Positions 9,657 to 52,261 are shown, counted from the stretch's first letter. The stretch: 64,000 bases of DNA from an uncultured Anaerolineales bacterium (GCA_964407215.1 CAYOUT010000003.1:34700-98699), one strand, 5' to 3'. The notes: a model not told the origin generated them from the letters alone. Translations and numbers: made by a program.

Positions 9657-9818
9657 GCCCCCAGGACTCTGTGGTGCGGAGATTGTCTCGTAACGGTACT
9701 CACTTGCGATATTGTCTCTCTTGGGCCATAGTGGCGGAAGAGACGGTAGGCGTTCACGTTCCACCCGATGCGCCGAGCGCGGCGCATCGCATCCATGGTG
9801 ACAGACAGGAGAAGGGAT

Positions 9819-11420
9819 ATGCCGAACCTATCGTGTTGGTTGTCGAGTTCGCTGCGCCGCTTCTACCCCACTTCGCCCGTCGAGAGCACCGATAGCCTCG
9901 AACTGCTCGCCGCGCGGAACGAACGCGCGTCTTTTCAAGCCTGTGTGCATAACCCAAGTTGGGATGTCGCTCAAGTACAGGTTTCTGTGAGCGACGTAGA
10001 GGGGTTGACCATCCTAGTGCGGCGTGTGGGCTATGTGCCCATGGCGCATCACAATACCGAAACGGAGCCAGACGAACTCGATGGTGTGGGCCGCGTCCCA
10101 GGCCTGGTGCCCGATCCGCTCTTTCCCGAGGATTGCGTCACCCTCGGTGCGATGGAGACTCACGCGTTTTGGGTTAACGTCACGATACCTGCCGACGCCG
10201 AGCCGGGGGCTCGGGAGTTCACGGTGCGGTTCGCCAGGAACGGCGAGACCTTGGCGGAGCTACCCGTTCGCCTGAAAGTGCATTCGATTGTGAACGAGGG
10301 ACATGACAATTTGCCGGTCACGCACTGGTTCTATGCCGACGCTCTGTGCGATTGGTACTGTGTCGAGCCGTTCGAAGAGGCTTTCTGGGACATCGTTCAG
10401 CCTTATATGCAAAACGTGGTGCAGCACGGGGTCAACAGCCTCTATGTTCCCATCTTTACGCCTCCCACCGATGGTGTCAAACGCGCTACGCAATTGCTGC
10501 GAGTGACCACCCCGGAGGTGGGACGTTACGCGTTCGATTTCAACGACGTGTTGCGCTGGGTGCGTCTGGCGAAAGCCAGCGGTGCGCGTTACTTTGAGTG
10601 GACGCACCTCTTCTCTCAGTGGGGCATCAAGTACGCCCTGCGAATCTATCGCAGCAACGCCGATCCGGATTCGCTTCTATGGCCACCCGATACCGCTGCC
10701 ACCTCTGACGTCTACCGTGGCTTTCTGGCGCAGTTCCTGCCGGCGTTTCACGAGTTTTTGGCGACGCACGACCTGCTGGATCGCTCCATCTTTCACCTGT
10801 CGGATGAACCACATGGCGACGAACATCTGGAGGCATACCGCCGCGCACGCGCCATGTTGCGCGAGTTAGCCCCCTGGATGCGTGTGGCCGACGCCATGAG
10901 CGACATCCGCTTCGGCCTCGAGGGGTTGACCGATATCCCCATCCCGAGTATCTCGACAGCTCACGAGTACGCCGAGGCAGGCATCCCCTCTTGGGTCTAC
11001 TTTTGTTGTGGCCCGCGGGGTCGCTATCTCAACCGCCTTATGGATACCCCGCTGCCTAAAATCCGCATGACGGGCTGGCTGCTATATCGCCTCAAGGCAC
11101 AGGGCTTCTTGCATTGGGGCTACAACTACTGGTACAAATCGCAGACGCAGCAACTCATCGACCCGTACACCGAGCAGGCAGGCTGCGCCTGGCCGAGCTG
11201 GGCCTACGGCGATACTTTCCTGGTATATCCTGGTGAGCGCGGCCCGGTGGATTCGATCCGCTGGGAGGCCTTTGGCGAGTCGCTGCAGGATTATGGCTTG
11301 CTGCAATCCGCCGGTGTTCAGCCGGAGAACGCTCTGCTCTCCTCTATCAAAGACTATGACGATTTCCCCAAGACGGAGGAGTGGATTGTGGCCGCTCGGA
11401 GAAAGATACTAACGGGATAA
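9819..11420 (+). CDS. DUF4091 domain protein (GH123-like putative glycoside hydrolase)
   Basis: FLHWGYNYW is a motif I recall as typical of DUF4091/GH123 proteins. An AGGAGA Shine-Dalgarno precedes the ATG at 9819, so the track start at 9768 is less likely. Confidence 0.5.
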   Translation: MPNLSCWLSSSLRRFYPTSPVESTDSLELLAARNERASFQACVHNPSWDVAQVQVSVSDVEGLTILVRRVGYVPMAHHNTETEPDELDGVGRVPGLVPDPLFPEDCVTLGAMETHAFWVNVTIPADAEPGAREFTVRFARNGETLAELPVRLKVHSIVNEGHDNLPVTHWFYADALCDWYCVEPFEEAFWDIVQPYMQNVVQHGVNSLYVPIFTPPTDGVKRATQLLRVTTPEVGRYAFDFNDVLRWVRLAKASGARYFEWTHLFSQWGIKYALRIYRSNADPDSLLWPPDTAATSDVYRGFLAQFLPAFHEFLATHDLLDRSIFHLSDEPHGDEHLEAYRRARAMLRELAPWMRVADAMSDIRFGLEGLTDIPIPSISTAHEYAEAGIPSWVYFCCGPRGRYLNRLMDTPLPKIRMTGWLLYRLKAQGFLHWGYNYWYKSQTQQLIDPYTEQAGCAWPSWAYGDTFLVYPGERGPVDSIRWEAFGESLQDYGLLQSAGVQPENALLSSIKDYDDFPKTEEWIVAARRKILTG

Positions 11421-14396: not shown

Positions 14397-15560
14397 TTAG
14401 ACTTTTCCGTACTCCAGGTGAGACACCTGATGCGACTTGATATAGTCCCAATCCAGTAAGGCGCCGAGCCCTGGCCCCTCCGGTGCGTAAACGCAGCCCT
14501 TTTCGTCGATAGCGTCCAGCCCGTCGCGGAAATTCAAATAGTAGCTGGCAAAGGTGCCGGGGCTTTTTGGATGAACTAGCCCCATCTCGTAGTAGTTTGT
14601 GTTGCGGATTGAGGTCATGCAATGGCGCGTGGCAGGGCCCGGACCGTGAAACTCGATATCGATACCCAGTCCCTCGGCGGCGTGCGCCAACTTCATGACG
14701 CCGGTGATACCGTCATAGCCGATGTCACCTCGCAGAAAGTCAGTCGCATCAGCCAGCGCAAAATCCACGTGGGGTTCCAATGTGCGCACATGCTCCGTCT
14801 GTAGGAGGGGGGTTTTGATGAGTTGCCGCAATTTACGATGCCCAAATTGGGAGATGCCGCCATCCTTGTAAGGATCCTCGAGCCAGAAGAAGCGCTCGTC
14901 GTCGCAGGCCCAACCCACTTTGACGGCATCGCCAAAGGTGTCGAGTTCGCAGGCTGGATCCAGCAACAGGTCCATCTTGCCACCAACCCGTTTGCCCACA
15001 GCGTGTATGTTGGCGATCTCCAAGTCCACTAACGAGCCTCCCCAGCCGTGGATCTTGAAGGCGGGATATCCCATCTCAAGGCATTGCTCGGCGAAATCGG
15101 CATAGGCCTCTGGAGAATCAAGGCCGCCGTTGTGATCGCCATGGGTGGTGCTAGCGTAGCACTTTAGCGGCCGGACATGCCCCCCCAATAGCTCGTACAA
15201 GGGAGCGTGATAATACTTGCCGGCGAGGTCCCACAGTGCCACGTCCACCGCGGCCATGCCAACGCGAGCCATCTGGCGCAGAGCGCGCTTGACGTCTTGG
15301 TAGATGCGTTCGCGCTCCAGGGCGTTCTTGCCGATGAGATAGTCAGCGAACATGGGCAGCGTCGCCAGCGATGTCATGCCCGCCGTACACTCGCCCGTGA
15401 TGCCCTGGTCGGTGTGAATCTGTAGCACAGCGGTTCGGCCCGTGACGGTGCTGCCCGCTTCGTAGACCAGATTGAACCCGTTATAGTCCCGGCCCAGCTC
15501 GTGTAGGGTGTACTCGAACTCTGTGATCTCGATACCCCTGATGATCGGCTTGTCTCCCAT
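14397..15560 (-). CDS. enolase-superfamily enzyme (mandelate racemase/muconate lactonizing enzyme family; sugar-acid dehydratase-like)
   Basis: It has an MR_MLE N-terminal capping domain and a barrel bearing KIHGWGG and DDERFFWLEDP metal-ligand motifs. A perfect AGGAGG Shine-Dalgarno precedes the M16 start. Confidence 0.7.
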   Translation of the reverse strand: MGDKPIIRGIEITEFEYTLHELGRDYNGFNLVYEAGSTVTGRTAVLQIHTDQGITGECTAGMTSLATLPMFADYLIGKNALERERIYQDVKRALRQMARVGMAAVDVALWDLAGKYYHAPLYELLGGHVRPLKCYASTTHGDHNGGLDSPEAYADFAEQCLEMGYPAFKIHGWGGSLVDLEIANIHAVGKRVGGKMDLLLDPACELDTFGDAVKVGWACDDERFFWLEDPYKDGGISQFGHRKLRQLIKTPLLQTEHVRTLEPHVDFALADATDFLRGDIGYDGITGVMKLAHAAEGLGIDIEFHGPGPATRHCMTSIRNTNYYEMGLVHPKSPGTFASYYLNFRDGLDAIDEKGCVYAPEGPGLGALLDWDYIKSHQVSHLEYGKV

Positions 15561-15802
15561 TGCTGCGCCTCCTGTTTTCGTCGCGCGTACTGTGATGGTT
15601 ATCATTGTAAGACGTTAATGAACATTACATCCCGGCTTCGCCGGATGTCAAGCTGAGAGTCGCTCGTATGCTGCCATTAGCGGGAGATCGAGCACAATGG
15701 GTTGACAGGAACGCCTCGTACCGCCTATCCTCGGCTCCGATGAGAGCGGGGCAAGCCCCCCGACGCTCCTTGTATGTACGACGCAGAAGGGAGATGATCG
15801 TA

Positions 15803-17269: not shown

Positions 17270-17312
17270 ACCCTACGTGATCGGCTTGTTGGTTGGGAGC
17301 AGGATAGTGTCA

Positions 17313-18374
17313 ATGAATACCTATGAACGCATGAAAGCGATGTACGAGCACCGCGAGGCCGATCGGGTGCCCATTGTGGAGACCCCCTGGAGCTCGACTC
17401 TCGAGCGCTGGGAACAGGAAGGTCTCCCCTCCGGTGTGGACTGGGAGGAGTATCTGGGGCTGGATAGACTGGTGACTATACACGCAGATAACAGTCCGCG
17501 TTATCCAGTGCGCGTCTTGGAGCAGACCGACGACTATACGGTGACGACTTCTAGCTTTGGGGTTACCATGCGCAACTGGCGTCACGCTGGAGGGGTGCCC
17601 GAGTTTCTCGATTTCAAAGTAGTGGATCCCGATGCTTGGGCCAAGGCCAAGGAGCGTATGCAGCCCAGCCGCGACCGTGTGGATTGGGGGACGCTGCAAC
17701 GGAACTACAAGCTGTGGCGTGAGCAGGGAGTATGGATTAGCGCGGGGTTCTGGTTCGGCTTTGATGTCACCCACTCTTGGATGGTGGGCACAGAGCGCCT
17801 GTTGCTGGCGTTCGTAGAACGCCCCGAGTGGGTGGCTGACATGATCAACCATATGCTCGAACTGGATATCGCGCTGTTCGATATGGTGTGGGAGGCCGGC
17901 TATCACTTTGACGAGATCCGCTGGCCTGACGATCTGGGGTACAAGAACAACCAGTTTATTTCGCCGAGAATGTACCGCAACCTGATCAAACCGGCTCACA
18001 AGCGCGCCGCTGAGTGGGCCCGCGCCAAAGGCGTCCACGTGGCACTGCATTCCTGCGGCGATGTGAACCCCTTTATTCCCGACTTTGTTGAGGCGGGCAT
18101 CGAGATGCTCAACCCTCTGGAGGTCAAGGCTGGCATGGATCCGCTGGCGCTCAAAGCGCGATACGGAGAGGGGCTGGCCTTGCACGGGGGGCTGAATGCG
18201 GTGCTCTATGAGCGCCCCGAGGAGCTCTGGGACGAAATGAGACGAGTGATCCCAGACATGAAGGCGCGAGGGGGCTATGTCATCAGTTCGGACCACTCAG
18301 TGCCCGATAGCGTCAGCCTGGACGAGTTCCGGCACTTTGTTCGGCTGGCCAAGGCGCTCGGAAGCTACGAGTAA
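17313..18374 (+). CDS. uroporphyrinogen decarboxylase (URO-D)-family protein, paralog 1
   Basis: The URO-D/MtaA fold is suggested by the length and by the conserved C-terminal SSDHSVP-type region. The start is at MNTYERMK. Confidence 0.6.
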   Translation: MNTYERMKAMYEHREADRVPIVETPWSSTLERWEQEGLPSGVDWEEYLGLDRLVTIHADNSPRYPVRVLEQTDDYTVTTSSFGVTMRNWRHAGGVPEFLDFKVVDPDAWAKAKERMQPSRDRVDWGTLQRNYKLWREQGVWISAGFWFGFDVTHSWMVGTERLLLAFVERPEWVADMINHMLELDIALFDMVWEAGYHFDEIRWPDDLGYKNNQFISPRMYRNLIKPAHKRAAEWARAKGVHVALHSCGDVNPFIPDFVEAGIEMLNPLEVKAGMDPLALKARYGEGLALHGGLNAVLYERPEELWDEMRRVIPDMKARGGYVISSDHSVPDSVSLDEFRHFVRLAKALGSYE

Positions 18375-18661
18375 GGTTTCTGTGGGGCGGCGCAGGTCTT
18401 GGCGCAGCCGTTAAAGTGAGATCAATCAGCACCGAAGGCCATGCGGAGGAGAAAAGCGTAGCGATTGAGGATAAGAGTACGCTGGATGCGCGTGGTGAAC
18501 CAAGCCGTGGGCGGGCATCAGCACGCTCTGGCCTCTCGCCACCAGTCTTTGTAACGGGATACCGCACCAGTGGCCTAACGATATCAGACGCTGCCCACGG
18601 CGCTCTTTCCCCCATCGCCCGGTCGTGATGCGCTTGAGGTTGTGTGAACCCTCGCACCTGA

Positions 18662-18687
18662 GAGGCCCTGGCTCAAGCCAGGGCCTC
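18662..18687. terminator. perfect 11-bp hairpin (GAGGCCCTGGC-tcaa-GCCAGGGCCTC) between convergent genes
   Basis: The hairpin is seen directly in the sequence. It lies 44 nt downstream of the minus-strand stop at 18733. The U-tract is weak on both strands. Confidence 0.35.
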
Positions 18688-18732
18688 GAGCTTTCCACGG
18701 CATAAAGTGCGTAAGATGCTCCCTGGGTTCGC

Positions 18733-21700
18733 CTACCGCCAGCCGCAGAGAGCCTCTACATGGGCGGCAGATCCATCGCGTAGCCAGCCGTCAAGCTGAG
18801 CTTGCTCCTTGAGCTGTTGGCCCCGCAGCCGGGGCACAATAACGAAGCGGCAATCAAAACGAGACAGCGCCGTTATATCGCCCCACAGCTTCTCAAACTG
18901 AGCCACGGGATAGATGTCCTCTTGCCCCTGACCCCAGCGTTTCTTGACCTCTTTGAGTGTGATGTAGGTGGGCATTCGGGCGGCGACACCCCTTATGGCC
19001 GAGGAGACCCTATCCTCATGCGACAGATCTTTGTGCGTGAGGCCAAAGGCACCGAGCAGCTTGTCGATATCCAACCACATAGTGTTCGAGTTATAGTAAG
19101 AAAGGCGAAACTCGCCCTCCTCCCTCGGCATGGCCAAGCCCTCTAGCAACCGCAAGCGCCCATCGATGCGCGCCAAGCCACCTCCGCGGTCCTCAAGCCT
19201 GCGAGTGATCACCTCGGCGGTGAACGCAGCGCCCTGGCTGATGTGCCACCCGAGCAGGGAGGGATCCACGTCTGCGCCCAGGGTGTCGATGTTGTGTATC
19301 ATCAGGTAACGCAGGTTGGGCCGCTCGTCCAGTAGCCGTAGTAGCACACCGTTGCGCAGCATGTTGGGCACCTCGAACCAATGGCCCACCGGGTGGAGGC
19401 ATTGGACTGGCAAGTTGTCCGTGTAATCGCCCCCCTCTCCGGCCTGCCTGGCCCAGCCTATCAACGCCGAGTGAAAGCTCTCGCGCACCTTTTGCGCTTG
19501 TTCATCCAGGAGCTGCTGCGGCATCTCCTCCCAGGCGAAACGCAGGTCACGGGCCATGGGGATCAAGCGCAGGCCTATAGCCCGCCCGGGCGAGAGGAGC
19601 AATGGCCCCGGATAACCGTAATGCTCTTGGCGTTGGAGGTAGGCTCTGATCGGCTCGTGGGTCAGGTAGCTCGTGGTGACAACGTGTGGGATGCTGAGAC
19701 CACACAGGCGGCCCATGCGCTGGCTCTTGGCCAAGTGGCATTCGATAAAGGAGCGGTGTGCACCACCCAGTTTGCAAAACGGATGCAGAGCCTTGACCAC
19801 ACCAGCGCCCTGAGTCCAGCGGCTTCCGACACCACCGGCCAACGACACCACGGCCAAGGCGCCGGATGCCAAGGCGTCCATCCCAATATCGCGGTACTCC
19901 TGGGGCAAGCCGCGACTGGCGTCTTGTACGTCATCGTCGGAGACGTCACGAATGTCGGTGCTGAGGGGCAGCCTGTTCTGCGCAAGCCCAATGCGGCCGT
20001 TACGCAGGTCGGCACGGATTTGCTCATGCTGAAGCGGATCAAAGCCGTTCTGCTCCAAGAGTTCTTGCAGGCTTTGACTACCCGCCTCGGCGCGCTCGGG
20101 ACGCGGTAGAATCGCGTCAAAGAGGGTCTGCACGGTACCGGCCAGCTCGGGCTTGGTGCGGCATGCCGCCCCAAAAAGATCCAGCTCCGTGCGACGGAGG
20201 GGTGGGAGCTGCAATCGTTCCTGTCGCAAGAGTTGCGGTAGGATGAGAGTGTAATACCCGGGTGGCATCAGCGCCTCGTCGCCTCGGAAGAGATCGGCCC
20301 ACGTCCCCCGCTCGTTAATGGAAAAATCATACACTACAGGCTCCATGGCAAAAGGCAGGGCGTGCTCCAAGGCGCGCTTGCCTTCGCTCATGATCTCCTG
20401 TAAGCGTTCCTGCGCCTTTTCCTTGTGTGCGGGGTCGAAAATAAAGCCCATTCCTCCACCGGACATACCGCCCAGCATCCAGAACCCCCAGAAATCGCCC
20501 CTGAACTCGCCTTCAACCCGTTGGATGAGCGTCTCCGTGTAAAGATTGCTGGCCCAAGGGATAATGGCCTGTATAGGCTCTCTAAAGTTGTGTGTGGTGG
20601 ACGCGCCGATGGCGCGCACGTCGCCAGCTCTCAAGTGGGCGAGGATGCGGTCTAGGGTGAGGCAAGCTTCTTGGCGCGCTCGCCACTCGGCCTCAGAGCG
20701 CAACAGATACTTTTCCGTCACCATCTCCAAGATGGGACCGACGTTCTGAGCCATCCCGCCATGGACCAGCACTAGGCTGTCTTGCAAGTGTTGACGCGTG
20801 TCTGGAGATACCTCTTCGGGGCCCAGGATCGTGTGGCTGGGCAATAGACGCCCGTGACTAATACTGTGCTCCGGGTCACCCTCCTGGGCCGACTCCCCTT
20901 GGATCAGCTTGATGCCGGGCCACACTCCGCCCGAGTCCTGCCAACCCCCGCCCGAGCCGGCAAGCCACTCTCCGAGGATCGCCCGTGCGGCAACGAGGCG
21001 TCTTTCGTGGTTCTCTAGCGGCCCCACGAGGCGTCGCGCCTGCCCCGTGGCGCGCATGCACACAGTGATGAGGGCAGCGAGAAGGCTGGTAGAGACCGCC
21101 AGTCGCGAGCCCTTTGGGATGTTTTTCACGTTACTCACCAGCTCGAGCCCCCGCCCGGGGCCGGCCATACGCGCCAAGAGGTCGGCCAAGCTCTCACCGG
21201 AGCCCTCTATTCCCGGGGGCACCAAGCCCGATGCGATGATTGCAGCTTTGAGAAGCCCCAGGTAGTCTCTGGCATAGTCAAACACTGTGGCCAAATCTGT
21301 GATATCCGTCGTCACGCCAAGATCCACGCTGGCCAATCGCAAAATCGGCTCGTCGATAACGCGTATATAGGCCTCAACGGGGGGCCGCGGTGATGAATCT
21401 CTGTTCCGCACCCCCAAATCGATGGATATATTCAGTACGCGGGCCCCTTGGGGGTAATCCATCCCCAGGAAAAAGATGTCGCTCCATCCGCTATGGGTGA
21501 GGTCCATGCGTACCGGTGTGGATTCTCTCAGGAGGGGGTAGAGGCCATCATCTGTGCGCTGAAGGAGATCACTATGAATGCGCAAAGGCTGATCGGCGGG
21601 GTGGCCCATACGGAACATCCACTGGTTCCCGCTCACAGAGCGGACGCTGCGGCGCACCTGGTCGGCCAGGGTCTGGAAGCCGAGGCTGTGATAACCCGCG

Positions 21701-22053
21701 GCGAGCGCGCTGGCCAGCCCATCGGTAGGACCTTCCTCCCTTTGTTTGCCCAAGAACAGATCGATCGCCTCCTCGAAACGTCGTCGTAGCAGAAAAGAGT
21801 ACCCATCAAAAGGGAGCAGCCCTCGCATGCGTAGGCCCGGTTTGCTGGGTAGGTAGAACCGGTAGATGGCGTAGAGGAAAAAAGACGCTCTCACACGCTG
21901 ATACAGGTTGTCACAGGATCGACGAAAACGGTCCAGAGTATCGCACTCTGCGAGCAAGTCGCCCAGGCTGGCCGAGCGGCAGAATCCATCCAACGAACGA
22001 TCGCGCACTGTCGGGTCGGGCGAGGTGATGAGCCTGACGAGCTGCCCTGTCAT
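18733..22053 (-). CDS. 1106-aa multidomain protein: N-terminal region of unknown function + GHMP-family sugar-1-kinase (fucokinase/HddA-like) + C-terminal UDPGP-family sugar-1-phosphate nucleotidyltransferase
   Basis: The kinase part shows motifs [21 protein letters not shown] (GHMP motif 2-like), [11 protein letters not shown] and [17 protein letters not shown] (GHMP motif 3-like). The C-terminal part shows [21 protein letters not shown] and [17 protein letters not shown], which are UDPGP-like signatures. The start overlaps the upstream gene's stop by 4 nt. Confidence 0.65.
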
Positions 22054-22919
22054 CGGCCATCTCCCCCTAAAGCGCTCAGCTCACGTTGTGCCATGAGCTC
22101 CAGTAGCTGGGAGAGGACCAGATCGCGGTCGCGGCCGTGGAGAGCTAGCGCGAGTTGAGCCGTCAGTAGGCCATACTTGACGCCCACGTCGTAGCGCAGG
22201 CCCTGAGTCACTAGGGCCAGGTAACGCTCGCGATGCGCCAACTCTGACAGAGCATCGGATAGACTCACCGGTCTCTGCCCGTCGGCCTCGGTTACGTGTC
22301 GCTCTAGGAGGCCCATAACACTGTGAGTCAGTACGTGCATCCCAAAAAAGCACAGGTAATGTCCCGCGCGTAGACCGGGTACCACCAAGCGTTGTTCAGC
22401 TTCGGTAGGAGTTGGCTTTTCCAGAACGTCCTCGATCAAGTATAGATCCTGGCGCCCCGAGACGCGACGTCCGCCGACGGTACCATAGTAGGGAAGCAAG
22501 CTCTCGCGGGAGGGTTGTACCGCTGAGACAGCACACGACTCGGCTCGCGCTACGTCCACCAACTGCTGTGCGCACTCTTGGGCCCCCCGGCTGACGTAAA
22601 GATGATCGCCCACCAGAAGAAGGAAGGGGCTCTGCCCCACAAAATCTCGTGCGCAGAACACTGCGTGACCATATCCCAGCGGATCGACTTGCTGCACAAA
22701 GTGCAGCCTGCCCCCAGAATCGCCAGCCACTTGCGTGTAAGCGCTCTCATCGCCCGGGCAGACTACTACACAGATCTCCTCGACCCCTGCCCGCAACACT
22801 TCCTCGATGAGGATGCGCAACACCGATTTCTGGGCACCGTCGCGGTCAATGAGTGTCTGAAGCGGGAGAGTCCTCTGTTCTCTGCCAGCGGCAGTGATCA
22901 CCGCCCTTTTCACTTGCAT
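22050..22919 (-). CDS. sugar-1-phosphate nucleotidyltransferase (GalU/RmlA-like NTP_transferase)
   Basis: [21 protein letters not shown] matches the GalU G-x-G-T-R-x-L-P motif. A GAGGG Shine-Dalgarno lies 7 nt upstream of the ATG at 22919. Confidence 0.7.
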
Positions 22920-22939
22920 AGAATGCCCTCGCATTGGAC

Positions 22940-22975
22940 AATATTATATGAGCACCTGCGTCTCATTGTCGGAGA
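22940..22975 (-). promoter_or_regulatory. candidate promoter for the nucleotidyltransferase-kinase operon; a perfect TATAAT -10 on the minus strand
   Basis: On the minus strand, TATAAT lies about 25 nt upstream of the start codon. The -35 region is weak (GACAAT). Confidence 0.3.
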
Positions 22976-23731
22976 GTAGACACCAGGGACAAGAGTATTC
23001 TACCACTCGAACCAGCGTGTAACCAGCACTGGCAACACAGCTGTCATATCGGCTATACGCTGAGGGCACCGTGCCCCGCTCTCTCGGCTGGCCGATACAG
23101 CACGGGTATCCTGGCCCGTGAGCACAAGATGCAAGGTGCGCCATGAGCACGTGCGATCGAATGGCTGCTGCCCTGTCGAAAGGCGGATTTCGTGAGATAC
23201 CCGTTGTCATCCCATACGAGAGTATATTCATTCGAGATTCTTGGAGCCAGCTTATAGATAGTCCGTAGCGGCACAGTACTCGATGGAGTTGAGCGAACAG
23301 CTATCGCAGCGAAAACAAGAGGAGCCCGTCGTATCGATCAGGGCAGGATTTAACTATCCAGTTTCTGCGCAAGTCAGAGCGCGAGAGACTCTGCCTTTAA
23401 ATCCAGATCGCGGGCGTTCCCCGAATCGGCAGGGCCACTGGTGGAGACACCAGAGCTGCAGCCTCCCCAGATAGGCGGCGAGCTCACCGTCGATCACGTC
23501 GACGCTGATGCCCGTCGATAGCGCAGAGGCGCTAAAGCAGCTCATTACGCTCCCCAAAGCAGAGCCTGCCTATGGGGATTTGAGGGGATGATGACCAGGA
23601 TCGCGCAACGGCCTGATCTCGCTACCCGGCTCATTGCCTGCATGGGGTGGAAGTGGCGGCTGCGTTGGGGCCCGGGGCATCTAGATCGAGGAGTGCATGA
23701 CAGATATGATCGAAGCGGAACCCTTTGCCAC

Positions 23732-24607
23732 TTACAACAGCCAGCCCACCAGCGCTCCCACCATGGCGCCGATGAGAGAACTGATGCAGTTCACCGCATC
23801 GTTAGTCATCCAACGCCACCCGTGTACATACATATTGGGTGCTCCGGTAGGATCAACAGGCCGCTCGGTCTCTTTCCCGCGACTGGGCGAGTAGTAAATC
23901 GCCTGTACAGTGGCACCCAATAAGCTATCGAACAACGAGCCCACCGAACCGCCCAGCACTGCGATGGGTATCAGCCCACTGGCCCCCACGAAGCGCTCTG
24001 TGCCCAACTGGCGGTGGATACTTCCCCCCAGGAGCCCATCCAATCTCAAGAACGCCAACATCGTGAGCCCCATGGCCAATGCCCCCGCCATAGAGGCTAA
24101 CGAGCCTAAAGCGGAGACGCCCCCCGACGTGCCCGGCTCGACGGGCTTCCACGTAGTTACAAGCCTCGGTGAGCGGGCGCTCAGTACACCCAGCTCAGTG
24201 GCCCAAGTATCTGCACTTACCGACGCCATAGCACCCACAAAAGCGGCCAGCCAGATGGGTGAAGGGTTCAGCATGTGCCCCAACGCTAACAGGGCCCCTA
24301 TCCCGCCATTGGCTAATGCTTGTCCCAGGTCGCGTTGAGAGCCCTTGGCGAATTGGTCCGCCACCGTTATCTTGGCGGATTCCTTGTAACGCGAGAGGAG
24401 GCTGGCGAGCGCGAAAAAAGTGATCAGGGTGAGGCCCCAGGCCCACCCCCCGCCCCCCCAGATGATGGTGCCTACTATAGCAGCGCCGAAGGCGCCGCTG
24501 CGTGTTAACGCCCGCCGCTTCAGTGCGGCCAAACCCACGAGACCGCTGAACACGAACCCAGAACCGAACCGCATCACCCATTCCATACGTAAGCCGCTCC
24601 TACACAA
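23732..24607 (-). CDS. DUF92/COG1836 membrane protein (VTE6 phytyl-phosphate kinase family)
   Basis: It is a multi-TM protein. It carries the GTIIWGGGGW segment characteristic of DUF92. Confidence 0.6.
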   Translation of the reverse strand: MCRSGLRMEWVMRFGSGFVFSGLVGLAALKRRALTRSGAFGAAIVGTIIWGGGGWAWGLTLITFFALASLLSRYKESAKITVADQFAKGSQRDLGQALANGGIGALLALGHMLNPSPIWLAAFVGAMASVSADTWATELGVLSARSPRLVTTWKPVEPGTSGGVSALGSLASMAGALAMGLTMLAFLRLDGLLGGSIHRQLGTERFVGASGLIPIAVLGGSVGSLFDSLLGATVQAIYYSPSRGKETERPVDPTGAPNMYVHGWRWMTNDAVNCISSLIGAMVGALVGWLL

Positions 24608-24656
24608 CTCGTCGCTGGACGTAAATACCCTGATGCGCTAGAGGCTGCTGCCCTTC

Positions 24657-25367
24657 TCATCGCGCGCCAACCAGTAGCCGGAGCACCGCGCCCGCCAAGA
24701 GAGGTACGGTGAGATTGTCGCTCCCTGCAGGGGACACGCCCTCTGCAATGGTGGCCACCGCGGTCGCGGCGAGGGTGTATATCAAGGCTTGCCCCAAACT
24801 CAGGGGCGTGCTGTTGGGGCTCAAGCCAGAGCTAGGTAACAACAAGAGGCTTATCAAGATGCCAATGAAAGCGAATAGCGCCATGGCGGCAGTCCCCTCC
24901 CATGAGCGCTGATGGCCCAGAACCCTGTAGTGATGTCTCCCCCAGCGCTCTCCCACGAGGCTGGCGGCGGCATCGCCCAGCGTCATGGCCATCATGGCGG
25001 CGACAGCGATGGGCGCGTGGTCCTGCTCATCGCCTGTGCGCCAGAGCAGCACAAACAGCAATGTGGCAGAGAAGGCAAAGTACACGGTGCCGTATGTAGA
25101 GCTGGTTGTGTCCATGGCCTTGAAAGCCTGCCATCGGCGAAAAGCGTAGTTCAACCCGATAAAGGTGGCAAAAGGAATCACGCCATAGTACCAATGCTCG
25201 AACAGAAACAAGATCCCCCAAACCCATAGCCCCGCACCCACATGGGTCACTTTACGCGTCAGGCTCTGAGGCCAGCGAAGGCGCTTACCCAAGGCCTCTG
25301 AAGCGAGCAACAGCGCGAAAGCGTAGGCGTAAGAGAGGGCCAGGCCGGTAACGTCACGGGGTGTCAT
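24657..25367 (-). CDS. CTP-dependent polyprenol/phytol/dolichol kinase-like membrane protein (CdsA-related family)
   Basis: MAMTLGDAAASLVGERWGRH matches the G-D-x-x-A-S-x-x-G-x-x-x-G-x-H motif of the phytol/dolichol kinase family. The start is at MTPRDV (M58 of the track ORF). Confidence 0.55.
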   Translation of the reverse strand: MTPRDVTGLALSYAYAFALLLASEALGKRLRWPQSLTRKVTHVGAGLWVWGILFLFEHWYYGVIPFATFIGLNYAFRRWQAFKAMDTTSSTYGTVYFAFSATLLFVLLWRTGDEQDHAPIAVAAMMAMTLGDAAASLVGERWGRHHYRVLGHQRSWEGTAAMALFAFIGILISLLLLPSSGLSPNSTPLSLGQALIYTLAATAVATIAEGVSPAGSDNLTVPLLAGAVLRLLVGAR

Positions 25368-25639
25368 GGATTCGACCTCATTGAGATTGCGTATTGGTTC
25401 GATCGGCTGGAATATGACACAACCTTGCGTTCTGCGCAAGGCGAACAATAGGCCTGTGAAGCTGTACCATCTGTATACCGATGTCGGGCGCGGTACGGCG
25501 GTCCGGCTAATCGCAAGAGGCTCGGCTGCACAAGGCATCCCATAGTTTTGGTGCAGTTCGTGTGGACACAGGTCGCCATAAGGCGAGCATAGTCAAGGCC
25601 CAGTCGTCTGCCCGTTTTGACGCCCCAGACCTTTCGTGC

Positions 25640-25858
25640 CATAATACACAAGGTGCTAAGGTCCATAGGGCCCAATTGAAAACAGTTCTCCGAACTGCAC
25701 GGCCTAAAGAACCAGTCCATGGTGTGCAGTCGGTGCCGCGGATTCCGCGGCCGACGGTATGGGTGGAAACGCCCATGCCCCCCATGTTTGGAAAGGAGAA
25801 CCCGGCTCGGCGCACTCTTGTGCCGGCGTTCTCTGCGAACGCCGGTTTTCTTTTTTGT
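25640..25858 (+). ncRNA. structured leader upstream of the Moco operon. I read it as a candidate Moco/Tuco riboswitch with a terminator/antiterminator expression platform.
   Basis: There are hairpins at GCCGCGG-att-CCGCGGC and ATGGGTG-GAAA-CGCCCAT. A GGAAAGGAG segment is present. CGGCGCAC...GTGCCGGCG is a possible antiterminator that shares GCCGGCG with the terminator's 5' arm. Confidence 0.35.
25823..25858 (+). terminator. intrinsic terminator (GCCGGCGTTC-tctgc-GAACGCCGG followed by TTTTCTTTTTTGT) located 20 nt before mog/moaB
   Basis: A perfect 9-10 bp GC-rich stem is followed by a 12-nt T-rich tract. Sitting immediately upstream of a start codon, it looks like an attenuator. Confidence 0.6.
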
Positions 25859-25879
25859 CTCAAGAGGATGGTAGGGCGC

Positions 25880-26377
25880 ATGCGTGCTGCGATAGTGACG
25901 ATAAGCGATAAAGCCTTTGTCGGCCAGCGAGAGGACAGCAGCGGCCCGATTCTCGCTCGAGCGCTCAGCGAACTGGGTGCCGTGGTCATCGAGAACATCA
26001 TTCTGCCCGACGAGCAGGATCGGATCGCTGCCGAACTGATGCGCTTGGCGGACGAGTTGCGCGTCGACTTGGTTGTGACCACGGGCGGCACGGGTCCCGC
26101 TGCGCGCGATCGGACACCAGAGGCTACTCGAGCGGTGATCGAACGGGAGATGCCCGGTTTGGCCGAGGTGCTACGCTTTCAGGGCTATCAGAAGACTCCG
26201 TGGGCGGTGCTTTCACGAGGGCTCGCTGGCATCCGCGGAGCCTGCCTGATCATCAACTTGCCGGGCAATCCCAAGGCTGTGCTGGAGGGGATGGAGGTGT
26301 TGGCCGCCATCCTGCCGCATGCTGTACAGATGATTCGCGGTGAGAACCTGGAGCACGAGGGATCTCACCATGCGTGA
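25880..26377 (+). CDS. mog: molybdenum cofactor biosynthesis protein MogA/MoaB (molybdopterin adenylyltransferase family)
   Basis: MRAAIVTISDK...LVVTTGGTGPAARDRTPEA contains the GGTG motif of the MogA/MoaB fold. An alternative start lies at 25868. Confidence 0.75.
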   Translation: MRAAIVTISDKAFVGQREDSSGPILARALSELGAVVIENIILPDEQDRIAAELMRLADELRVDLVVTTGGTGPAARDRTPEATRAVIEREMPGLAEVLRFQGYQKTPWAVLSRGLAGIRGACLIINLPGNPKAVLEGMEVLAAILPHAVQMIRGENLEHEGSHHA

Positions 26378-27599
26378 CCGAGAGAGCTACCCCCTTTTGA
26401 GCGTCGAACAGGCGTTGGAACGCATCCTCGCCACGGTACATCCCCTGGAGCCGGAGAGCATCCCGATCCTTGAGGCGTTGGGCCGTGTGCTGGCAGAGGA
26501 CATTTCCTCTGATACCGATGTGCCCCCTCTGGACAACTCGGCCATGGACGGCTATGCCGTGCAGGGTGGGGCTCTCGACAACGCTGTGGCCCCGATACGG
26601 TTGCGTATCGTGGACGAGGTGGTCGCTGGCCAGATGCCCGAGCGCTGCGTAGGCGAGGGCGAGGCGGTCCGCATTATGACGGGCGCGCCCATCCCCCAGG
26701 GTGCCGACACAGTAGTGCGGTTTGAGGATACAGCCCGTGAGGGGGAGTGGGTGGTGATCCATCGGGTACCCCGGGTGGGCGCCAACGTGCGTTCCGCTGG
26801 AGAGGACGTCCGCTGCGGGGAGATAGTGCTTACTGCGGGCACTCCGCTGCGTGCGCAGGAGATCGGTATGCTGGCCTCTGTTGGGCACGAGCGGGCGCGG
26901 GTGCTCCGTCGACCACGGGTGGCTATCCTGGCCACAGGCGATGAAGTGGTGGAGATCCGTGAGCCCGCAGGGGCTGGCAAGATACGCAACATCAACAGCT
27001 ATACCAACGCGACGCAAGTATTGGCCGCCGGGGGTGAGCCTGTGTTGTTGGGCGTCGCCCGTGACAGAGCTGGCGAGTTGAGTGATGCCCTGCGCCGTGG
27101 GCTCGATGCCGGGGCCGACTTGTTCATAACCTCCGGCGGGGTGTCGGTGGGAGATTTCGACTTGGTGAAGAACGTGCTCTCCTCCGAGGGGAGCATGGAC
27201 TTTTGGTGGGTCAATATGAAGCCGGGGAAGCCGATGGCGTTTGGGCGCCTGGAGCGCGTGCCACTGCTGGCCCTGCCGGGAAATCCCGTGGCGGCCATGA
27301 TCAGTTTTGGGCTCTTTGCGAGGCCAGCGATCCGTAAAATGCTGGGGCACACACAATGGGAGTGGCCCTCTACCATGGCCAGGCTTGCTGATCCTATCGC
27401 CCGCAAAGATGGCCGACGCCACTACTTGCGTGTGCGCTTGCAGGAGGCACCGGGCGGGCTGCTGGAGGCCAGACTCACCGGCGACCAGGGATCCGGCATA
27501 TTGGCTTCGATGGTGCAGGCCGATGGACTGGCCGTGATCCCCGAGGATTGCGGTCGCCTTGAGGCGGGCAGTCTGGTGCAGGTGTTGTTGCTGAACTGA
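26370..27599 (+). CDS. moeA: molybdopterin molybdotransferase MoeA (paralog 1)
   Basis: PLDNSAMDGYAV and ITSGGVSVGDFD match MoeA motifs. A GAGGGA Shine-Dalgarno is present. The start overlaps the end of mog by 8 nt. Confidence 0.8.
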   Translation: MRDRESYPLLSVEQALERILATVHPLEPESIPILEALGRVLAEDISSDTDVPPLDNSAMDGYAVQGGALDNAVAPIRLRIVDEVVAGQMPERCVGEGEAVRIMTGAPIPQGADTVVRFEDTAREGEWVVIHRVPRVGANVRSAGEDVRCGEIVLTAGTPLRAQEIGMLASVGHERARVLRRPRVAILATGDEVVEIREPAGAGKIRNINSYTNATQVLAAGGEPVLLGVARDRAGELSDALRRGLDAGADLFITSGGVSVGDFDLVKNVLSSEGSMDFWWVNMKPGKPMAFGRLERVPLLALPGNPVAAMISFGLFARPAIRKMLGHTQWEWPSTMARLADPIARKDGRRHYLRVRLQEAPGGLLEARLTGDQGSGILASMVQADGLAVIPEDCGRLEAGSLVQVLLLN

Positions 27600-27671
27600 A
27601 TGTTTCTACTCGGACAACGTTCATGCACGGTGTCTGGTGATGCCTATCTCGACTTGTATCGGATGATGTAA

Positions 27672-28910
27672 ATGGCAAAAAATTTGTACCCTCTTATCTC
27701 AACGGAATCCGCATGGCAGCGCATTGCCGCCGTCATACGGGCTCTGTCGCCCGTCGAACAGCAGCTGGATGCTTTGCTGGGCCACGTGCTCGCGGAGAAC
27801 GTCGTTGCGCGCGAGAACATGCCACCGTTTCGCTCTGCGGCCATGGACGGTTACGCCGTTATCGCCGCAGAAGGGACAGCCCAGCGACGCATTCTTGGCG
27901 AGCAGGATGCGGGGCGCGCGCAACCCTTCCTCGTAACGCCCGGGACCGCGGTACGCATCATGACGGGGGCGCCGGTGCCCGAAGGAGCGGACGCTGTTGT
28001 GCCGGTGGAGCAAGCTCTCGAAGAGGCCGGGTGTGTTCGCTTCCATGGAACGATGCCCTCCAATAGTTTTGTCCGGCCTGTTGGCCAAGATCTGGCGGCC
28101 GGCGATGTGGTGCTGCATGCGGGGATTGTGCTGGGGCCTCCGGAAATCGGCCTTCTGGCGGCGGTGGGGCGCACACGGGTGTCGGTGCATCCCAAACCCA
28201 TCGTCGCAGTGATGGCCACTGGCGATGAGTTGGTCGATCCCGACCAGCTTCCCGCGCCCGGCCAGATACGAGACAGCAACAGCCACGCTCTCGTGGCTGC
28301 GATCGCGGCTGCAGGGTTTGTACCCCTATCGTTGGGGCATGTCGATGACGATGCGGAGATGCTGCGCGCGGCTATTCTGGAGGGCGTGTCTGGTGCCGAC
28401 ATGCTATTGACCTCTGGCGGCGTCTCCATGGGCACGCGAGATTTGATCAAGCCGTTACTGCGCGAGCTTGGCACGGTGCATTTTGGGCGGGTCGCCGTCA
28501 AGCCGGGCAAACCTCTGACTTTTGCTGTGGTTCGAGGGACGCCGGTATTCGGGTTGCCCGGTTTTCCCGTGTCCTCGCTCGTCTCGTTCGAGCAATTCGT
28601 GCGGCCGGCTCTGCGCATCATGGCGGGGCACAGCAAACTCTGGCGGCCTCAAGTGTGTGCGCGCCTAAGCCATCCCGTTCGGCACGAAGCGGATCGCACC
28701 GAGTTCCAGCGGGCCGTGGTAGAACAGCGTGATGGCATCTGGTGGGCCGAAACCACGGGCTCGCAGGTGTCGGGCAGGCTCAAATCGCTTGTGGGCGCCA
28801 ATGCCCTTTTGCGCATTCCCGAGGGTGTGGCGGATCTGGCTGCAGGTGATCAAGTGGACGCTATCCTGGTCGATCAGCCGGAGGTGGGTGGCAATGAGCA
28901 CACCTCATGA
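27672..28910 (+). CDS. moeA: molybdopterin molybdotransferase MoeA (paralog 2)
   Basis: FRSAAMDGYAV and LTSGGVSMGTRD match MoeA motifs. It is a second tandem copy. Confidence 0.8.
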   Translation: MAKNLYPLISTESAWQRIAAVIRALSPVEQQLDALLGHVLAENVVARENMPPFRSAAMDGYAVIAAEGTAQRRILGEQDAGRAQPFLVTPGTAVRIMTGAPVPEGADAVVPVEQALEEAGCVRFHGTMPSNSFVRPVGQDLAAGDVVLHAGIVLGPPEIGLLAAVGRTRVSVHPKPIVAVMATGDELVDPDQLPAPGQIRDSNSHALVAAIAAAGFVPLSLGHVDDDAEMLRAAILEGVSGADMLLTSGGVSMGTRDLIKPLLRELGTVHFGRVAVKPGKPLTFAVVRGTPVFGLPGFPVSSLVSFEQFVRPALRIMAGHSKLWRPQVCARLSHPVRHEADRTEFQRAVVEQRDGIWWAETTGSQVSGRLKSLVGANALLRIPEGVADLAAGDQVDAILVDQPEVGGNEHTS

Positions 28911-33388: not shown

Positions 33389-35416
33389 CTAGCTCTCCAA
33401 GTTGAGCCAGCGCAGCTCCTCCGGCGTGAGACTCACTTGCAACGCCTCCACAGACGTGCGGGTTTCCTCGATGCTACGCGGGCCGATGAGAGCGAACACT
33501 TCCAGTGGTTGACAGAGCACATAGGCCAGCGCGATCTGAGTAGAAGTCACGCCTCTGAGTCGGGCTAGTTCTCTCGCGCGCTCCAGCCGCTGAAAGTTGG
33601 CCTCGTTGAACCAGGTGCGTGCGATCTCGCGCATGTCCGGATTGGTACGATCCTGTGGCGCGTAGCGACCGGTGAAGAGCCCCGATGCTTGGCTGCTCCA
33701 TGCAAAGAGCGGTATGCGGGTGCGTTCGTACCATGCGCGCGATACGGCATCCGATGCGGTGATACAGCCGGGCCACATCGGCTCATTCCAGACGGCTAGC
33801 GCCAAATTGGGGCTGCTGGCCGCAAAGCCCGTCAGATTGTGATCTCGAGCGTATACGTTGGCCGCCTCGATGCGCTCGATGCTCCAATTAGAGCCTCCGA
33901 ACGCGCGTATGCGGCCGGCCCTCTTGTGCTCGTTGAGGCACTCGACGAACTCACCCACGGGAATATCTGGGTTGTCGCGATGCAACATATACAGATCCAG
34001 GTAGTCGGTCTGCAGGTGCTCCAGGGTCTCCGCCAGCTGGCTTGTAAGTCCCTCCGGGTGACAGTCGGGTGTGTGAGCCCCCTTGCCGATGAGCACCAGT
34101 TCCTCTCGAATCCCCCGCAGATTCAGCCATTGTCCCACAGTAGCCTCGGTGCCATAGACCCGTGCCGTGTCCAAGCAGGTGCCCCCCAGCTCCACGTAAT
34201 GATCCAGCATGGCGCAAGTGAAGGGCAGCTCGTCTCGGCGGTAGACCATGGTGCCCATCACGATGCGCGAGATCGGCTTGTCTACACCCTCGACCCGACC
34301 GTACTGCATGATGTGGCCCGTGCGGGGCGCGGGCGCTCGGCCCGACGTAGGGGTTGCTAACGCCTCGGGCGTCTCGTTATCGAACACTAAACCGATCTTT
34401 TTGCGCCACCGATCCAATGTGCGCATATTGCCAAGGCTATCCTCCCACGTCATGCATGGGGGCGGCCCTTGGCGGTCCGATAGGTGGCGGGCTACGGTGT
34501 CCGCTTCGATGGCGTACAACTGCGCCCCACCCTCAACCTGTAATGTCTCCGGCTCGGGCTCACCGTCGCGGAAGATCAGGATTTCGTTGCTCGACTCTTG
34601 TGGAAACCAGGGGTTGGGCACGATGATATGCCCCTCAGAGCCCCAGATGCGCAGCGCAGGATCCACACTCAACTGGATTCCGCAAACGAGATTGGCGAGA
34701 ACATCGCCGGGGAACCCGAGCGCGGCAGTGGCCCACTCGTCTACGCAACTCCCCTCACCGACATGCGCCAAGCCCTCGACCTCTGTGGGCTCGGCCACGG
34801 GTCTGCCTGTGGCGGCCCCAGCTACAAGGCGCGCCATCGAGGCGCAATAGCAGCCCACGTCCATGATGCCACCACCGGCTGCTGCGTTCTGTTGGCGGAT
34901 GTTATCTCGCGGCCCCTGCATATTGAATGAGAAATGGGCCTGAATCAGTCGCACGTCGCCGATGGCCCCCTCACGTATCAACTGCACCAATCGTGCTGTC
35001 TGGGGGTGGCAACGATACATAAAGGCTTCCATCAGAAATACGTCGTGGTAGCGGGCCGCTTCGATAGCGGTCATGGCCTCGGCATAGTTCGTGGCCAGCG
35101 GCTTCTCACACAAGATGTGTTTGCGCGCCTCGGCGCAGCGGATGGTCCACAGGGCGTGTAGATGGTTGGGCAAGGCGATGTACACCGCCTGTACGTCAGG
35201 ATCGGCCAGAAGGGCTTCGTAGCTGCTGTAGCGTCGAGGGATGTCGAACTCGTCACCAAAGCGATCTGCCTTCTCTTGATTGCGGCTTCCTATGGCGAGC
35301 AGTTCACCGGTCTCCGAACTTCGCAGGGCTTTGGCAAAGGTCTTGGCGATGCCACCGGCGCCTAGAATCCCCCAACGGAGCATCGACATAGTATCGTTGG
35401 TCTCTGTCATCATCAT
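33389..35416 (-). CDS. fusion protein: Gfo/Idh/MocA-family NAD(P)-dependent oxidoreductase (N-terminal) + aldo/keto reductase (C-terminal)
   Basis: LRWGILGAGGIAK, EKPLA and the ~370-aa Gfo/Idh/MocA fold are followed by AKR motifs (LDTARVYG, the LHRDNPD region). A GGGAGG Shine-Dalgarno precedes the ATGATGATG at 35416. Confidence 0.7.
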   Translation of the reverse strand: MMMTETNDTMSMLRWGILGAGGIAKTFAKALRSSETGELLAIGSRNQEKADRFGDEFDIPRRYSSYEALLADPDVQAVYIALPNHLHALWTIRCAEARKHILCEKPLATNYAEAMTAIEAARYHDVFLMEAFMYRCHPQTARLVQLIREGAIGDVRLIQAHFSFNMQGPRDNIRQQNAAAGGGIMDVGCYCASMARLVAGAATGRPVAEPTEVEGLAHVGEGSCVDEWATAALGFPGDVLANLVCGIQLSVDPALRIWGSEGHIIVPNPWFPQESSNEILIFRDGEPEPETLQVEGGAQLYAIEADTVARHLSDRQGPPPCMTWEDSLGNMRTLDRWRKKIGLVFDNETPEALATPTSGRAPAPRTGHIMQYGRVEGVDKPISRIVMGTMVYRRDELPFTCAMLDHYVELGGTCLDTARVYGTEATVGQWLNLRGIREELVLIGKGAHTPDCHPEGLTSQLAETLEHLQTDYLDLYMLHRDNPDIPVGEFVECLNEHKRAGRIRAFGGSNWSIERIEAANVYARDHNLTGFAASSPNLALAVWNEPMWPGCITASDAVSRAWYERTRIPLFAWSSQASGLFTGRYAPQDRTNPDMREIARTWFNEANFQRLERARELARLRGVTSTQIALAYVLCQPLEVFALIGPRSIEETRTSVEALQVSLTPEELRWLNLES

Positions 35417-35669
35417 AATTGCCTCCCAGATCACCGCGTATGTACTGTACTGAGGCTGCAGTGTAGCGGGGGTGGCGGTCGATGACAAGGGGGGGTGTGG
35501 TCCGGCAGTGTTTGCTCAAAAGGCGGCGATGAGTAGTATTGTGGCAGGCGTCCGCTTCCGCGTCTCATGGCTGGACGAGGTCGTGGCATCGCCGAGTCTA
35601 TCAGGGGAGCACGATCTCCATGTGCGAGCAGTTACTTGTGGCGTTGGGCTATTCGGCGGAAGCGCTTCC

Positions 35670-44227: not shown

Positions 44228-44317
44228 GGCTGACCTCCTCTTGGGGTAATGCTCGGATGGTAGACGTTGCAAAGCCGCGCGTCAAGCAGAGCGGCGATGT
44301 GCAAATTGGTGTTTGTC

Positions 44318-47612
<3,295 letters not shown>

Positions 47613-48962: not shown

Positions 48963-49021
48963 CACGAGGGGCTCTGATGCCCTCAATAGTGCGACACGAG
49001 CAGAGACCAAGGAGCCCATCG

Positions 49022-52193: not shown

Positions 52194-52261
52194 GGTCTTG
52201 TGTTAACAGCGGCGTAGAGTCTGCGCTGCACAACGACACGATGTCAAACGAAAGGGATGCT

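Follow-up and report, generated by a model that had tools for sequence, protein, structure and literature searches.

A 64,000-nucleotide stretch of DNA from an uncultured Anaerolineales bacterium (GCA_964407215.1, CAYOUT010000003.1:34700-98699; the whole stretch is called the window below) carries on its minus strand a GalU-like gene followed by a gene for an 1106-residue protein, in which a GHMP-type sugar kinase domain precedes a pyrophosphorylase domain of the UDPGP family. We consider it fairly probable that the pair is a free-standing two-gene operon that would convert a free sugar directly into a nucleotide sugar. The proposal builds on the identities of the domains, the conservation of their catalytic residues, the conserved pairing of the two genes and the occurrence of kinase-pyrophosphorylase fusions in either order. 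The operon is common in nature, is annotated from only one of its three domains, and is a variant of the kinase/pyrophosphorylase fusions of the Fkp, FKGP and GKUP type.

Layout of the operon

The sequence-only reading that singled out this locus described a nucleotidyltransferase gene ending in an ATGA overlap with a giant open reading frame (ORF). The overlap is present, and so are all the peptides that the reading quoted, one in the small protein and the others at residues 311-331, 366-376, 525-541, 738-758 and 921-937 of the large one. The genes and the parts of the large protein are listed below, with positions counted from the first nucleotide of the window.

22050..22919, minus strand: GalU-like gene, 289 residues from M6, with an alternative upstream ATG at 22934
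22050..22053, minus strand: ATGA stop/start overlap between the GalU-like and the large gene, seen in the sequence
18733..22053, minus strand: large fusion gene, 1106 residues, stop codon included (ORF and profile searches)
21649..22053, minus strand: residues 1-135, all-helical N-terminal domain without recognisable relative
21520..21648, minus strand: residues 136-178, conserved basic segment SVRSVxGNQWMFRxGHPxDxPLR, of low model confidence
20284..21519, minus strand: residues 179-590, predicted fucokinase-clade GHMP sugar-1-kinase domain (NCBIfam and PDB matches)
19954..20283, minus strand: residues 591-700, helical connector (helices 598-684 in the model)
18736..19953, minus strand: residues 701-1106, predicted UDPGP-family (PF01704) pyrophosphorylase core and C-terminal domain (Pfam, PDB and Foldseek)

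Judged from the sequence, the overlap of the small and large genes would bring about translational coupling, and a Shine-Dalgarno-like purine run (GGGGGAG) lies about 9 nucleotides (nt) upstream of the large-gene ATG. Begun at its first ATG, the GalU-like ORF has 294 residues (22050..22934, minus strand); the end at 22919 given by the sequence-only reading corresponds to the second in-frame ATG (M6, MQVKRAV...). The M6 start agrees with the homologue consensus MKITKAVITAAG and with the NCBI gene call of 289 residues (P0273), and GAGGG stands 8 nt upstream of it. Since thousands of full-length homologues exist, the ORFs are not chance occurrences.

The kinase domain

The middle of the large protein, residues 179-590, is best read as a fucokinase-clade GHMP kinase domain, as had been proposed from its motifs. 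The NCBIfam model of Fkp (PRK13412) aligns its positions 614-951 with residues 179-558 at E=1.4e-22, the score of 79.3 bits falling below the equivalog cut-off of 721, and a sequence search of PDB matches the Fkp kinase domain (9iip/5yys) to residues 178-413 at E~1e-11 (E=2e-10 with a family profile). Using the HMMER alignment, we located in the protein the residues singled out by the paper on the structure of Fkp (PMC11982464), and assessed invariance in an alignment of 49 homologues. Fkp R592, W599, D601, S719, E751, G759, Q761 and D762 correspond to R182, W190, D192, S321, E362, G370, Q372 and D373, all of them invariant. Their Fkp counterparts include the general base, the Mg ligand and the transition-state stabilisers, and make five of six contacts to fucose (PMC11982464); by the alignment, the general base here is D373, the Asp of the GGGWQD motif, the Mg ligand is S321 and the Arg of motif I is R182. 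Fkp W599, equivalent to W190, stacks on C4-C6 of fucose (PMC11982464). The sole fucose contact that differs is T602, replaced by I193, and the Fkp-named residues without an identical counterpart are this threonine and the backbone contacts Gly717 and Ala900. With a pocket so like that of L-fucokinase, an L-fucose-like substrate (an L-galacto or related sugar) is probable.

Motif III of the kinase is intact. The phosphate-binding loop (P-loop) reads GSRLAVSTS, against AGSGLGTSS in Fkp and PxGSGLGSS in the canonical motif II, and keeps the Mg-ligand serine. In relatives at 30-37% identity the loop reads GSGLAVST, Gly taking the place of R317, and W190 is replaced by Gly or Ala. From this near-canonical loop, the kinase domain family looks catalytic, the Trp and the Arg being features of the present clade. 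A pyrophosphate-dependent kinase that recycles the by-product of the pyrophosphorylase, an idea prompted by the P-loop Arg, was considered and dropped for want of support.

The UDPGP domain and the model of the large protein

The C-terminus, assigned to the UDPGP family by the earlier reading as well, is predicted to be a pyrophosphorylase of that family. UDPGP (PF01704) is the only Pfam family found in the large protein and scores 54.8 bits against a gathering cut-off of 22 (E=8.6e-15). Among PDB sequences, fungal, plant and human UGPases match residues 880-997 at E values from about 1e-13 to 1e-8 (as low as 5e-13 with the family profile). A Foldseek search of PDB retrieves plant UGPase, human AGX and fungal UAP at E~3e-13 over 405-499 columns, with target-normalised template modelling scores of 0.5-0.59 at an identity of only 13-20%. 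G741, G743, R745, K754, H891, N921, D923, E1054 and K1055 are invariant among the 49 homologues, and with them the family's motifs: the nucleotide-binding loop LAGGxGSRW, K754, GH891, N921-x-D923 and FE-K1055. These motifs are mostly retained in relatives at 30-55% identity. The nucleotide-binding loop is of the UAP/USP type (LAGGxGxR), and the central region is nearest to UGPase by sequence. PF01704 was also listed among cellulose-degradation-associated families in a machine-learning study of 2013 (PMC3585893), which is not informative here.

An AlphaFold2 model of the 1106-residue protein, of moderate confidence (mean predicted local distance difference test score, pLDDT, 68), consists in order of a helical N-domain (1-135), an alpha/beta GHMP part, a helical connector (598-684) and, last, a C-terminal enzyme of alpha/beta type. 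The connector, as modelled, probably belongs to the UDPGP enzyme as its helical N-terminal portion, an assignment based on the span of the Foldseek alignments to whole UGPase/UAP chains. The helical N-domain is modelled at a pLDDT of 80-95 and has no match in profile searches. The segment that follows it (136-178) falls below a pLDDT of 50; S136, V137, R138, G142-R148, G150, H151, D154, P156 and L157 are invariant in the alignment of 49, and this conservation is missing in a divergent clade. Some 250 N-terminal residues had been described as lacking any recognisable motif. GHMP homology in fact begins at about residue 178, and what stays unassigned is the helical domain of about 135 residues and the conserved segment of about 40.

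The GalU-like protein

The small protein belongs to the GalU-like family (Pfam NTP_transferase, 35.8 bits), although with 96.5 bits against a cut-off of 326.8 it does not reach the equivalog level of TIGR01099 galU. Its best PDB match is the Bacillus subtilis UGPase YngB (E=4.6e-26). The nucleoside triphosphate (NTP) loop departs from the GalU signature, reading TAAG[RK]xQRxLPLQTLxDRDG instead of GxGTRxLPxTKxxPKE, and the Lys of the GalU PKE aligns with R31. Across 72 sequences, Q20, Q82, G87, A91, D110, H111, E172, K173 and P174 are invariant, and R21 (68/72), H90 (68/72), R247 (71/72) and D249 (62/72) nearly so; the motifs for sugar-phosphate and uridine (Q, LGxGHA, GD, EKP, RYDxG) are thus kept. 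As the altered NTP loop is itself almost invariant, it points to a positive function and not to decay. The R-rich loop has a partial precedent in Fkp, G75-G76-x-S78-R79-R80 (PMC11982464). The small protein may be an enzyme or a ligand-sensing partner: the "second pyrophosphorylase" of the sequence-only reading may not be a plain second enzyme, having G[RK]xQR in place of GxGTR.

Distribution and conservation

The architecture, which had been thought unusual, is not rare. A scan of one genome per GTDB species found it in at least 595 species genomes from about ten phyla, at 63-74% identity. The carriers listed include Chloroflexota, Verrucomicrobiota, Planctomycetota, Acidobacteriota, Armatimonadota, Lentisphaerota, Myxococcota, Bacteroidota (including Rhodothermales) and Moduliflexus, and the closest relatives among the matches listed are Anaerolineae. 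A word-indexed search of metagenomic proteins gave at least 8000 matches, the best 120 of which are all full-length at 71-75% identity, and an exhaustive HMMER search of representatives clustered at 50% identity yielded 3209 clusters at E<=1e-3, of which 710 reach E<=1e-30. Members that carry a name in the databases are "UTP--glucose-1-phosphate uridylyltransferase" or "hypothetical protein".

Synteny was analysed in the 80 best loci, where mean identity is 71-76% within phyla and 65-69% between them. Judged from these sequences, divergence is very compressed for an enzyme of 1100 residues, which points to unusually strong constraint, to horizontal spread, or to both. In 71 of the 80 loci, drawn from about ten phyla, the large gene is immediately preceded by a GalU-like gene in the same orientation; most of the remaining nine are cut off within 1 kb upstream, too short a stretch for a verdict. 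In the 69 loci with both genes, the spacing is a 4-nt overlap in 16 and lies between -8 and +30 nt in 43. Two outgroups, of 55% and 46% identity, likewise carry an NTP_transferase gene that precedes the large gene and overlaps it by 4 nt; a third, of 49% identity, does not show the pair in this form.

No third partner accompanies the pair. Neither ORF clustering nor a Pfam census of 136 flanking genes revealed a conserved one, the commonest flanking family being MFS transporters (4/136), and a tblastn search of the 80 loci with five window neighbours (GH5-like, URO-D-like, DUF92, CTP-transferase-like and enolase-superfamily) found that none recurs. With no recurring third gene, the operon is a self-contained two-gene module set in variable contexts.

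Several occurrences lie outside the usual setting. The oxymonad eukaryote Blattamonas nauphoetae has an annotated homologue of 1292 residues (P0158, KAK2962578.1), which BLASTP aligns over its full length at 32% identity; it could reflect lateral transfer or contamination. The gene pair also occurs on a 243-kb plasmid of Hymenobacter volaticus (NZ_CP095065.1, L085:8026-12229), the large gene lying beside one that is annotated "sugar phosphate nucleotidyltransferase". On this plasmid the large gene is a probable pseudogene, because its match falls into three pieces and it is missing from the gene table. A role in anti-phage defence was considered and set aside, there being no PADLOC matches and no copies of the operon in viral contigs.

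Relatives with other architectures

In the low-GC genome GCA_030765505.1, protein P0248 (L082:6001-9741) a distant relative, carries the UDPGP module first (117-481) and the N-domain with GHMP second (544-1218); the helical N-domain travels with the kinase module. The fusion of kinase and UDPGP modules in both orders supports their functional coupling. Still larger relatives of 2318 (P0143) and 2939 residues (P0159, L081:10001-18820) combine the core with a ROK sugar kinase, and P0143, known from a single 8.6-kb contig, also carries a phosphatase domain of the inositol-monophosphatase family. Genes beside the divergent, Omnitrophota-type members encode UDP-glucose dehydrogenase, NUDIX, class-3 FBPase and phosphodiester glycosidase domains. 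By the Rosetta-stone argument, the permuted fusion, the giant fusions and these neighbours place the core in sugar-phosphate and nucleotide-sugar metabolism. A GalU-like copy was not found by tblastn in the four divergent loci, and a fusion of the GalU-like protein into the giant relatives was discarded when BLASTP returned nothing.

The surroundings of these relatives have features of their own. P0248 sits among very large ORFs of 943-1288 residues, most without Pfam matches, and has NUDIX-, phosphodiester-glycosidase- and class-3-FBPase-like neighbours. The upstream neighbour of P0159 is an ORF of 7976 residues, cut by the end of the locus, with HAD and glycoamylase domains. In an Omnitrophota metagenome-assembled genome (L083:42-5615), the gene for an 1857-residue protein containing UDP-glucose/GDP-mannose dehydrogenase domains shares 4 nt with the beginning of the gene for the 1343-residue relative P0134.

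Proposed function and alternatives

In the scheme we favour, the GHMP domain would use ATP to phosphorylate the anomeric hydroxyl of a monosaccharide, and the UDPGP domain of the same chain would then join the resulting sugar-1-phosphate to an NTP, most probably UTP, releasing a nucleotide sugar and pyrophosphate. We infer this sequential action of the two domains, and a physical complex with the small protein. The GalU-like protein would most likely be a partner subunit, either a regulator that senses the UDP-sugar product, on the model of GalF with GalU or GMPPA with GMPPB, or a second transferase. Because the catalytic residues of both domains are invariant, passage from free sugar to nucleotide sugar on one polypeptide is reasonable; of the single-polypeptide UDP-sugar module put forward in the sequence-only reading, this part holds up, and the "UDP" and the sugar's identity are assumptions.

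Several results weigh against the proposal. A Pfam scan of the large protein finds no GHMP model at E<=1, and the P-loop is non-canonical, R317 and A319, invariant in the clade, standing at the positions of Fkp G715 and G717. Arabidopsis USPase, of the UDPGP family, rejects beta-L-Fuc-1-P (PMC5609113), which makes the combination of a fucokinase-type product with a UDPGP-type transferase stereochemically awkward; either the sugar is something other than L-fucose, or the specificity of the UDPGP domain is a new one, or the kinase product passes to the GalU-like protein. A simple two-step scheme does not account for a second, GalU-like protein. The 136 flanking genes give no hint of the sugar's identity, and 65-69% identity between phyla over 1100 residues is more than would be expected of a dispensable salvage enzyme.

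The P-loop, in which GSRLAVSTS departs from GSGLGTSS, and the lack of a Pfam GHMP match, together with an NCBIfam Fkp score of 79 against 721, could also mean that the GHMP domain is a non-catalytic pseudokinase that binds a sugar or sugar-phosphate for regulation; the whole would then be an allosteric UDP-sugar or UDP-glucose pyrophosphorylase, as the database name suggests. Pseudoenzymes usually lose their catalytic residues, however, and D373, R182, E362 and the Mg-ligand S321 are invariant here. With motif III intact and a near-canonical loop, Gly at the R317 position included, in distant relatives, we find this explanation distinctly unlikely. The rejection of beta-L-Fuc-1-P by Arabidopsis USPase (PMC5609113) lends itself to another arrangement, in which the kinase product is used by the GalU-like protein, as in a split-gene Fkp or GKUP, and the UDPGP domain does a different job: it might provide UDP-glucose, or work in the reverse direction, the two transferases together exchanging uridylyl between UDP-glucose and a new sugar-1-phosphate in a GalT-free bypass of the Leloir type. 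The gene order of NTP-transferase, helical region and GHMP parallels the domain order of Fkp, and the small protein keeps the uridine and sugar-phosphate motifs of GalU (Q82, RYDxG) and an R-rich loop partly like Fkp G75-G76-x-S78-R79-R80. Yet the small protein is absent beside the divergent clade, where kinase and UDPGP are still fused, so the link between these two is older and tighter; nor does it show similarity to the Fkp N-terminal domain detectable with Pfam or NCBIfam. We know of no uridylyl exchange mechanism of this kind, which also counts against the arrangement, and rate it as unlikely.

Fucokinase and HddA are sister GHMP clades, and the kinase might instead act, like HddA of the GDP-heptose pathway, on a phosphorylated sugar to give a sugar-1,x-bisphosphate, the operon being biosynthetic and not one of salvage. 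The ROK kinase and IMPase-type phosphatase of the giant relatives would then supply and remove the distal phosphate, and the invariant Arg-rich segment 132-158 and R317 could bind it as a second phosphate. No phosphatase gene is conserved beside the main-clade operon, though, the invariant W190 suggests an unphosphorylated, hydrophobic sugar edge, and the basic segment is not conserved in the very clade that bears the ROK/IMPase fusions; this reading seems to us very improbable. A bolder version of the scheme makes the two proteins a heteromeric machine with three nucleotide-handling sites, producing a nucleotide sugar new to biology, either a UDP-activated sugar of the L-fucose type (beta-L) or the product of a uridylyl exchange independent of GalT, with UTP and pyrophosphate passing between the GalU-like subunit and the UDPGP domain. 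We regard it as a long shot. Sequential kinase and pyrophosphorylase action on one chain, with the GalU-like protein as partner, is the reading that we carry forward.

Comparison with known systems

Among the nearest known systems, Bacteroides fragilis Fkp and plant FKGP, both bifunctional L-fucokinase/GDP-L-fucose pyrophosphorylases, resemble the large protein in uniting a fucokinase-clade GHMP kinase and a nucleotide-sugar pyrophosphorylase on one chain, in their kinase catalytic and sugar-contact residues and in the helical region before the kinase domain. They differ in domain order, the kinase coming first here. They also have an Fkp/FPGT-type guanylyltransferase with a beta-helix instead of UDPGP (PF01704), and the match of our protein to the Fkp model covers the kinase part only. 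The separate GalU-like partner, and the P-loop in which Arg and Ala replace two Gly, are further differences. Both types of pyrophosphorylase belong to the GT-A-like nucleotidyltransferase superfamily and differ at the family level. The sequence-only reading was thus right that known fusions have the opposite order and another pyrophosphorylase family (PMC11982464, PMC3938481), and too strong in calling the fold different. In Fkp, the pyrophosphorylase occupies residues 1-496 and the kinase 519-949 (PMC11982464).

Zebrafish GKUP, a glucuronokinase/putative UDP-GlcA pyrophosphorylase, joins a GHMP sugar-1-kinase to a UTP-dependent nucleotidyltransferase for salvage to a UDP-sugar (PMC3938481). 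The two-step logic of an anomeric GHMP kinase joined to a pyrophosphorylase is the same, whereas GKUP has a short bacterial-type NTP-transferase at the N-terminus, a C-terminal kinase of another clade and no UDPGP domain. The eukaryotic UGPase, UAP and USP enzymes share the fold and catalytic motifs of the C-terminal 450 or so residues, but stand alone at about 470-630 residues, whereas the present domain follows a kinase on one chain. In plants, USP completes the sugar-salvage routes that start with GHMP sugar-1-kinases. GalU/GalF and GMPPB/GMPPA offer a parallel for a GalU-type fold with an altered NTP loop paired with a pyrophosphorylase, GalF and GMPPA being altered paralogues with regulatory roles. 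Here, in contrast, the partner is of the UDPGP family and not a paralogue, and the altered loop is strictly conserved.

A full-text literature search, with most subscription journals outside its coverage, found no published characterisation of the kinase-UDPGP architecture, and the sequence-only reading likewise did not know it as characterised.

Flanking regions and other features of the window

Directly upstream of the operon lies a sigma-70-like promoter candidate.

22943..22972, minus strand: match to CCGACA-18-TATAAT, a consensus match only

Such matches are no more numerous in the region than in shuffled sequence. The roughly 800 nt upstream of the operon (22935-23731) hold no convincing gene, and an Rfam scan of 18300-23800, this gap included, found no family at gathering score. 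A riboswitch or leader RNA in the gap was considered and rejected, the scan having returned only a sub-threshold small RNA match on the other side of the operon. This match, downstream of the large gene at 18633-18696 (plus strand), is to BjrC68, a small RNA of Bradyrhizobiaceae, at 25.8 bits against a gathering score of 39 (E=0.0015), and is probably due to chance.

Glycosidase genes are found elsewhere in the window.

9768-11420: GH123
41483-42772, plus strand: GH29 alpha-L-fucosidase
42926-44272: GH4
44403-47612: GH2
50214-52193: GH42

The operon had been suggested to serve the sugars released by the GH29, GH2, GH42 and GH4 enzymes. Their genes exist in the window, and the suggestion has no synteny support from the 80 other loci. 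Since they are not syntenic with the operon elsewhere, the glycosidases are not evidence for its function, and we rejected the link as a general feature, none of the tested window neighbours and no gene family recurring in the 80 loci. An alpha-L-fucosidase (GH29) encoded 19 kb from the operon would fit an organism that has fucose at its disposal.

Three URO-D paralogues (17277-18374, 48977-50176 and 53469-54557, all on the plus strand) lie among glycosidase and sugar-oxidoreductase genes, an odd recurrence in a carbohydrate-utilisation region. The window also has three enolase-superfamily (MR_MLE) genes (14397-15605, minus; 52187-53422, plus; 54626-56089, minus) and several oxidoreductases; with GH29, these could form a non-phosphorylative sugar-acid route, for example through L-fuconate. 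An ORF of 699 residues (33389-35488, minus strand) is an apparent fusion of a GFO/IDH/MocA oxidoreductase (37-360) and an aldo/keto reductase (408-693). At 23732-25538 (minus strand), a DUF92 integral membrane protein (PF01940) adjoins a weak CTP_transf_1-like membrane protein, a pair that we take to resemble the plant phytyl-phosphate kinase and phytol kinase (VTE6/VTE5). A molybdenum-cofactor cluster (25562-28910, plus strand) consists of a MogA-like MoCF_biosynth protein followed by two MoeA paralogues.

Biological implications

The family is very large and more conserved between phyla than most enzymes, and the label of plain UDP-glucose pyrophosphorylase that it now bears probably misleads metabolic reconstructions of the genomes concerned. 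If the proposed function is correct, the large protein would join Fkp/FKGP and GKUP as the third independently assembled one-chain system of sugar salvage, and would be the first to employ a UDPGP enzyme of eukaryotic type. It might also offer a one-enzyme catalyst from free sugars to UDP-sugars for chemo-enzymatic glycan synthesis. Should the heteromeric machine prove real, it would represent an unrecognised, near-housekeeping form of sugar activation in Chloroflexota, Verrucomicrobiota, Planctomycetota, Acidobacteriota and others, and would help to explain the high conservation. The identity of the sugar would inform the envelope or glycan biology common to many poorly studied phyla of soil, sediment and freshwater.

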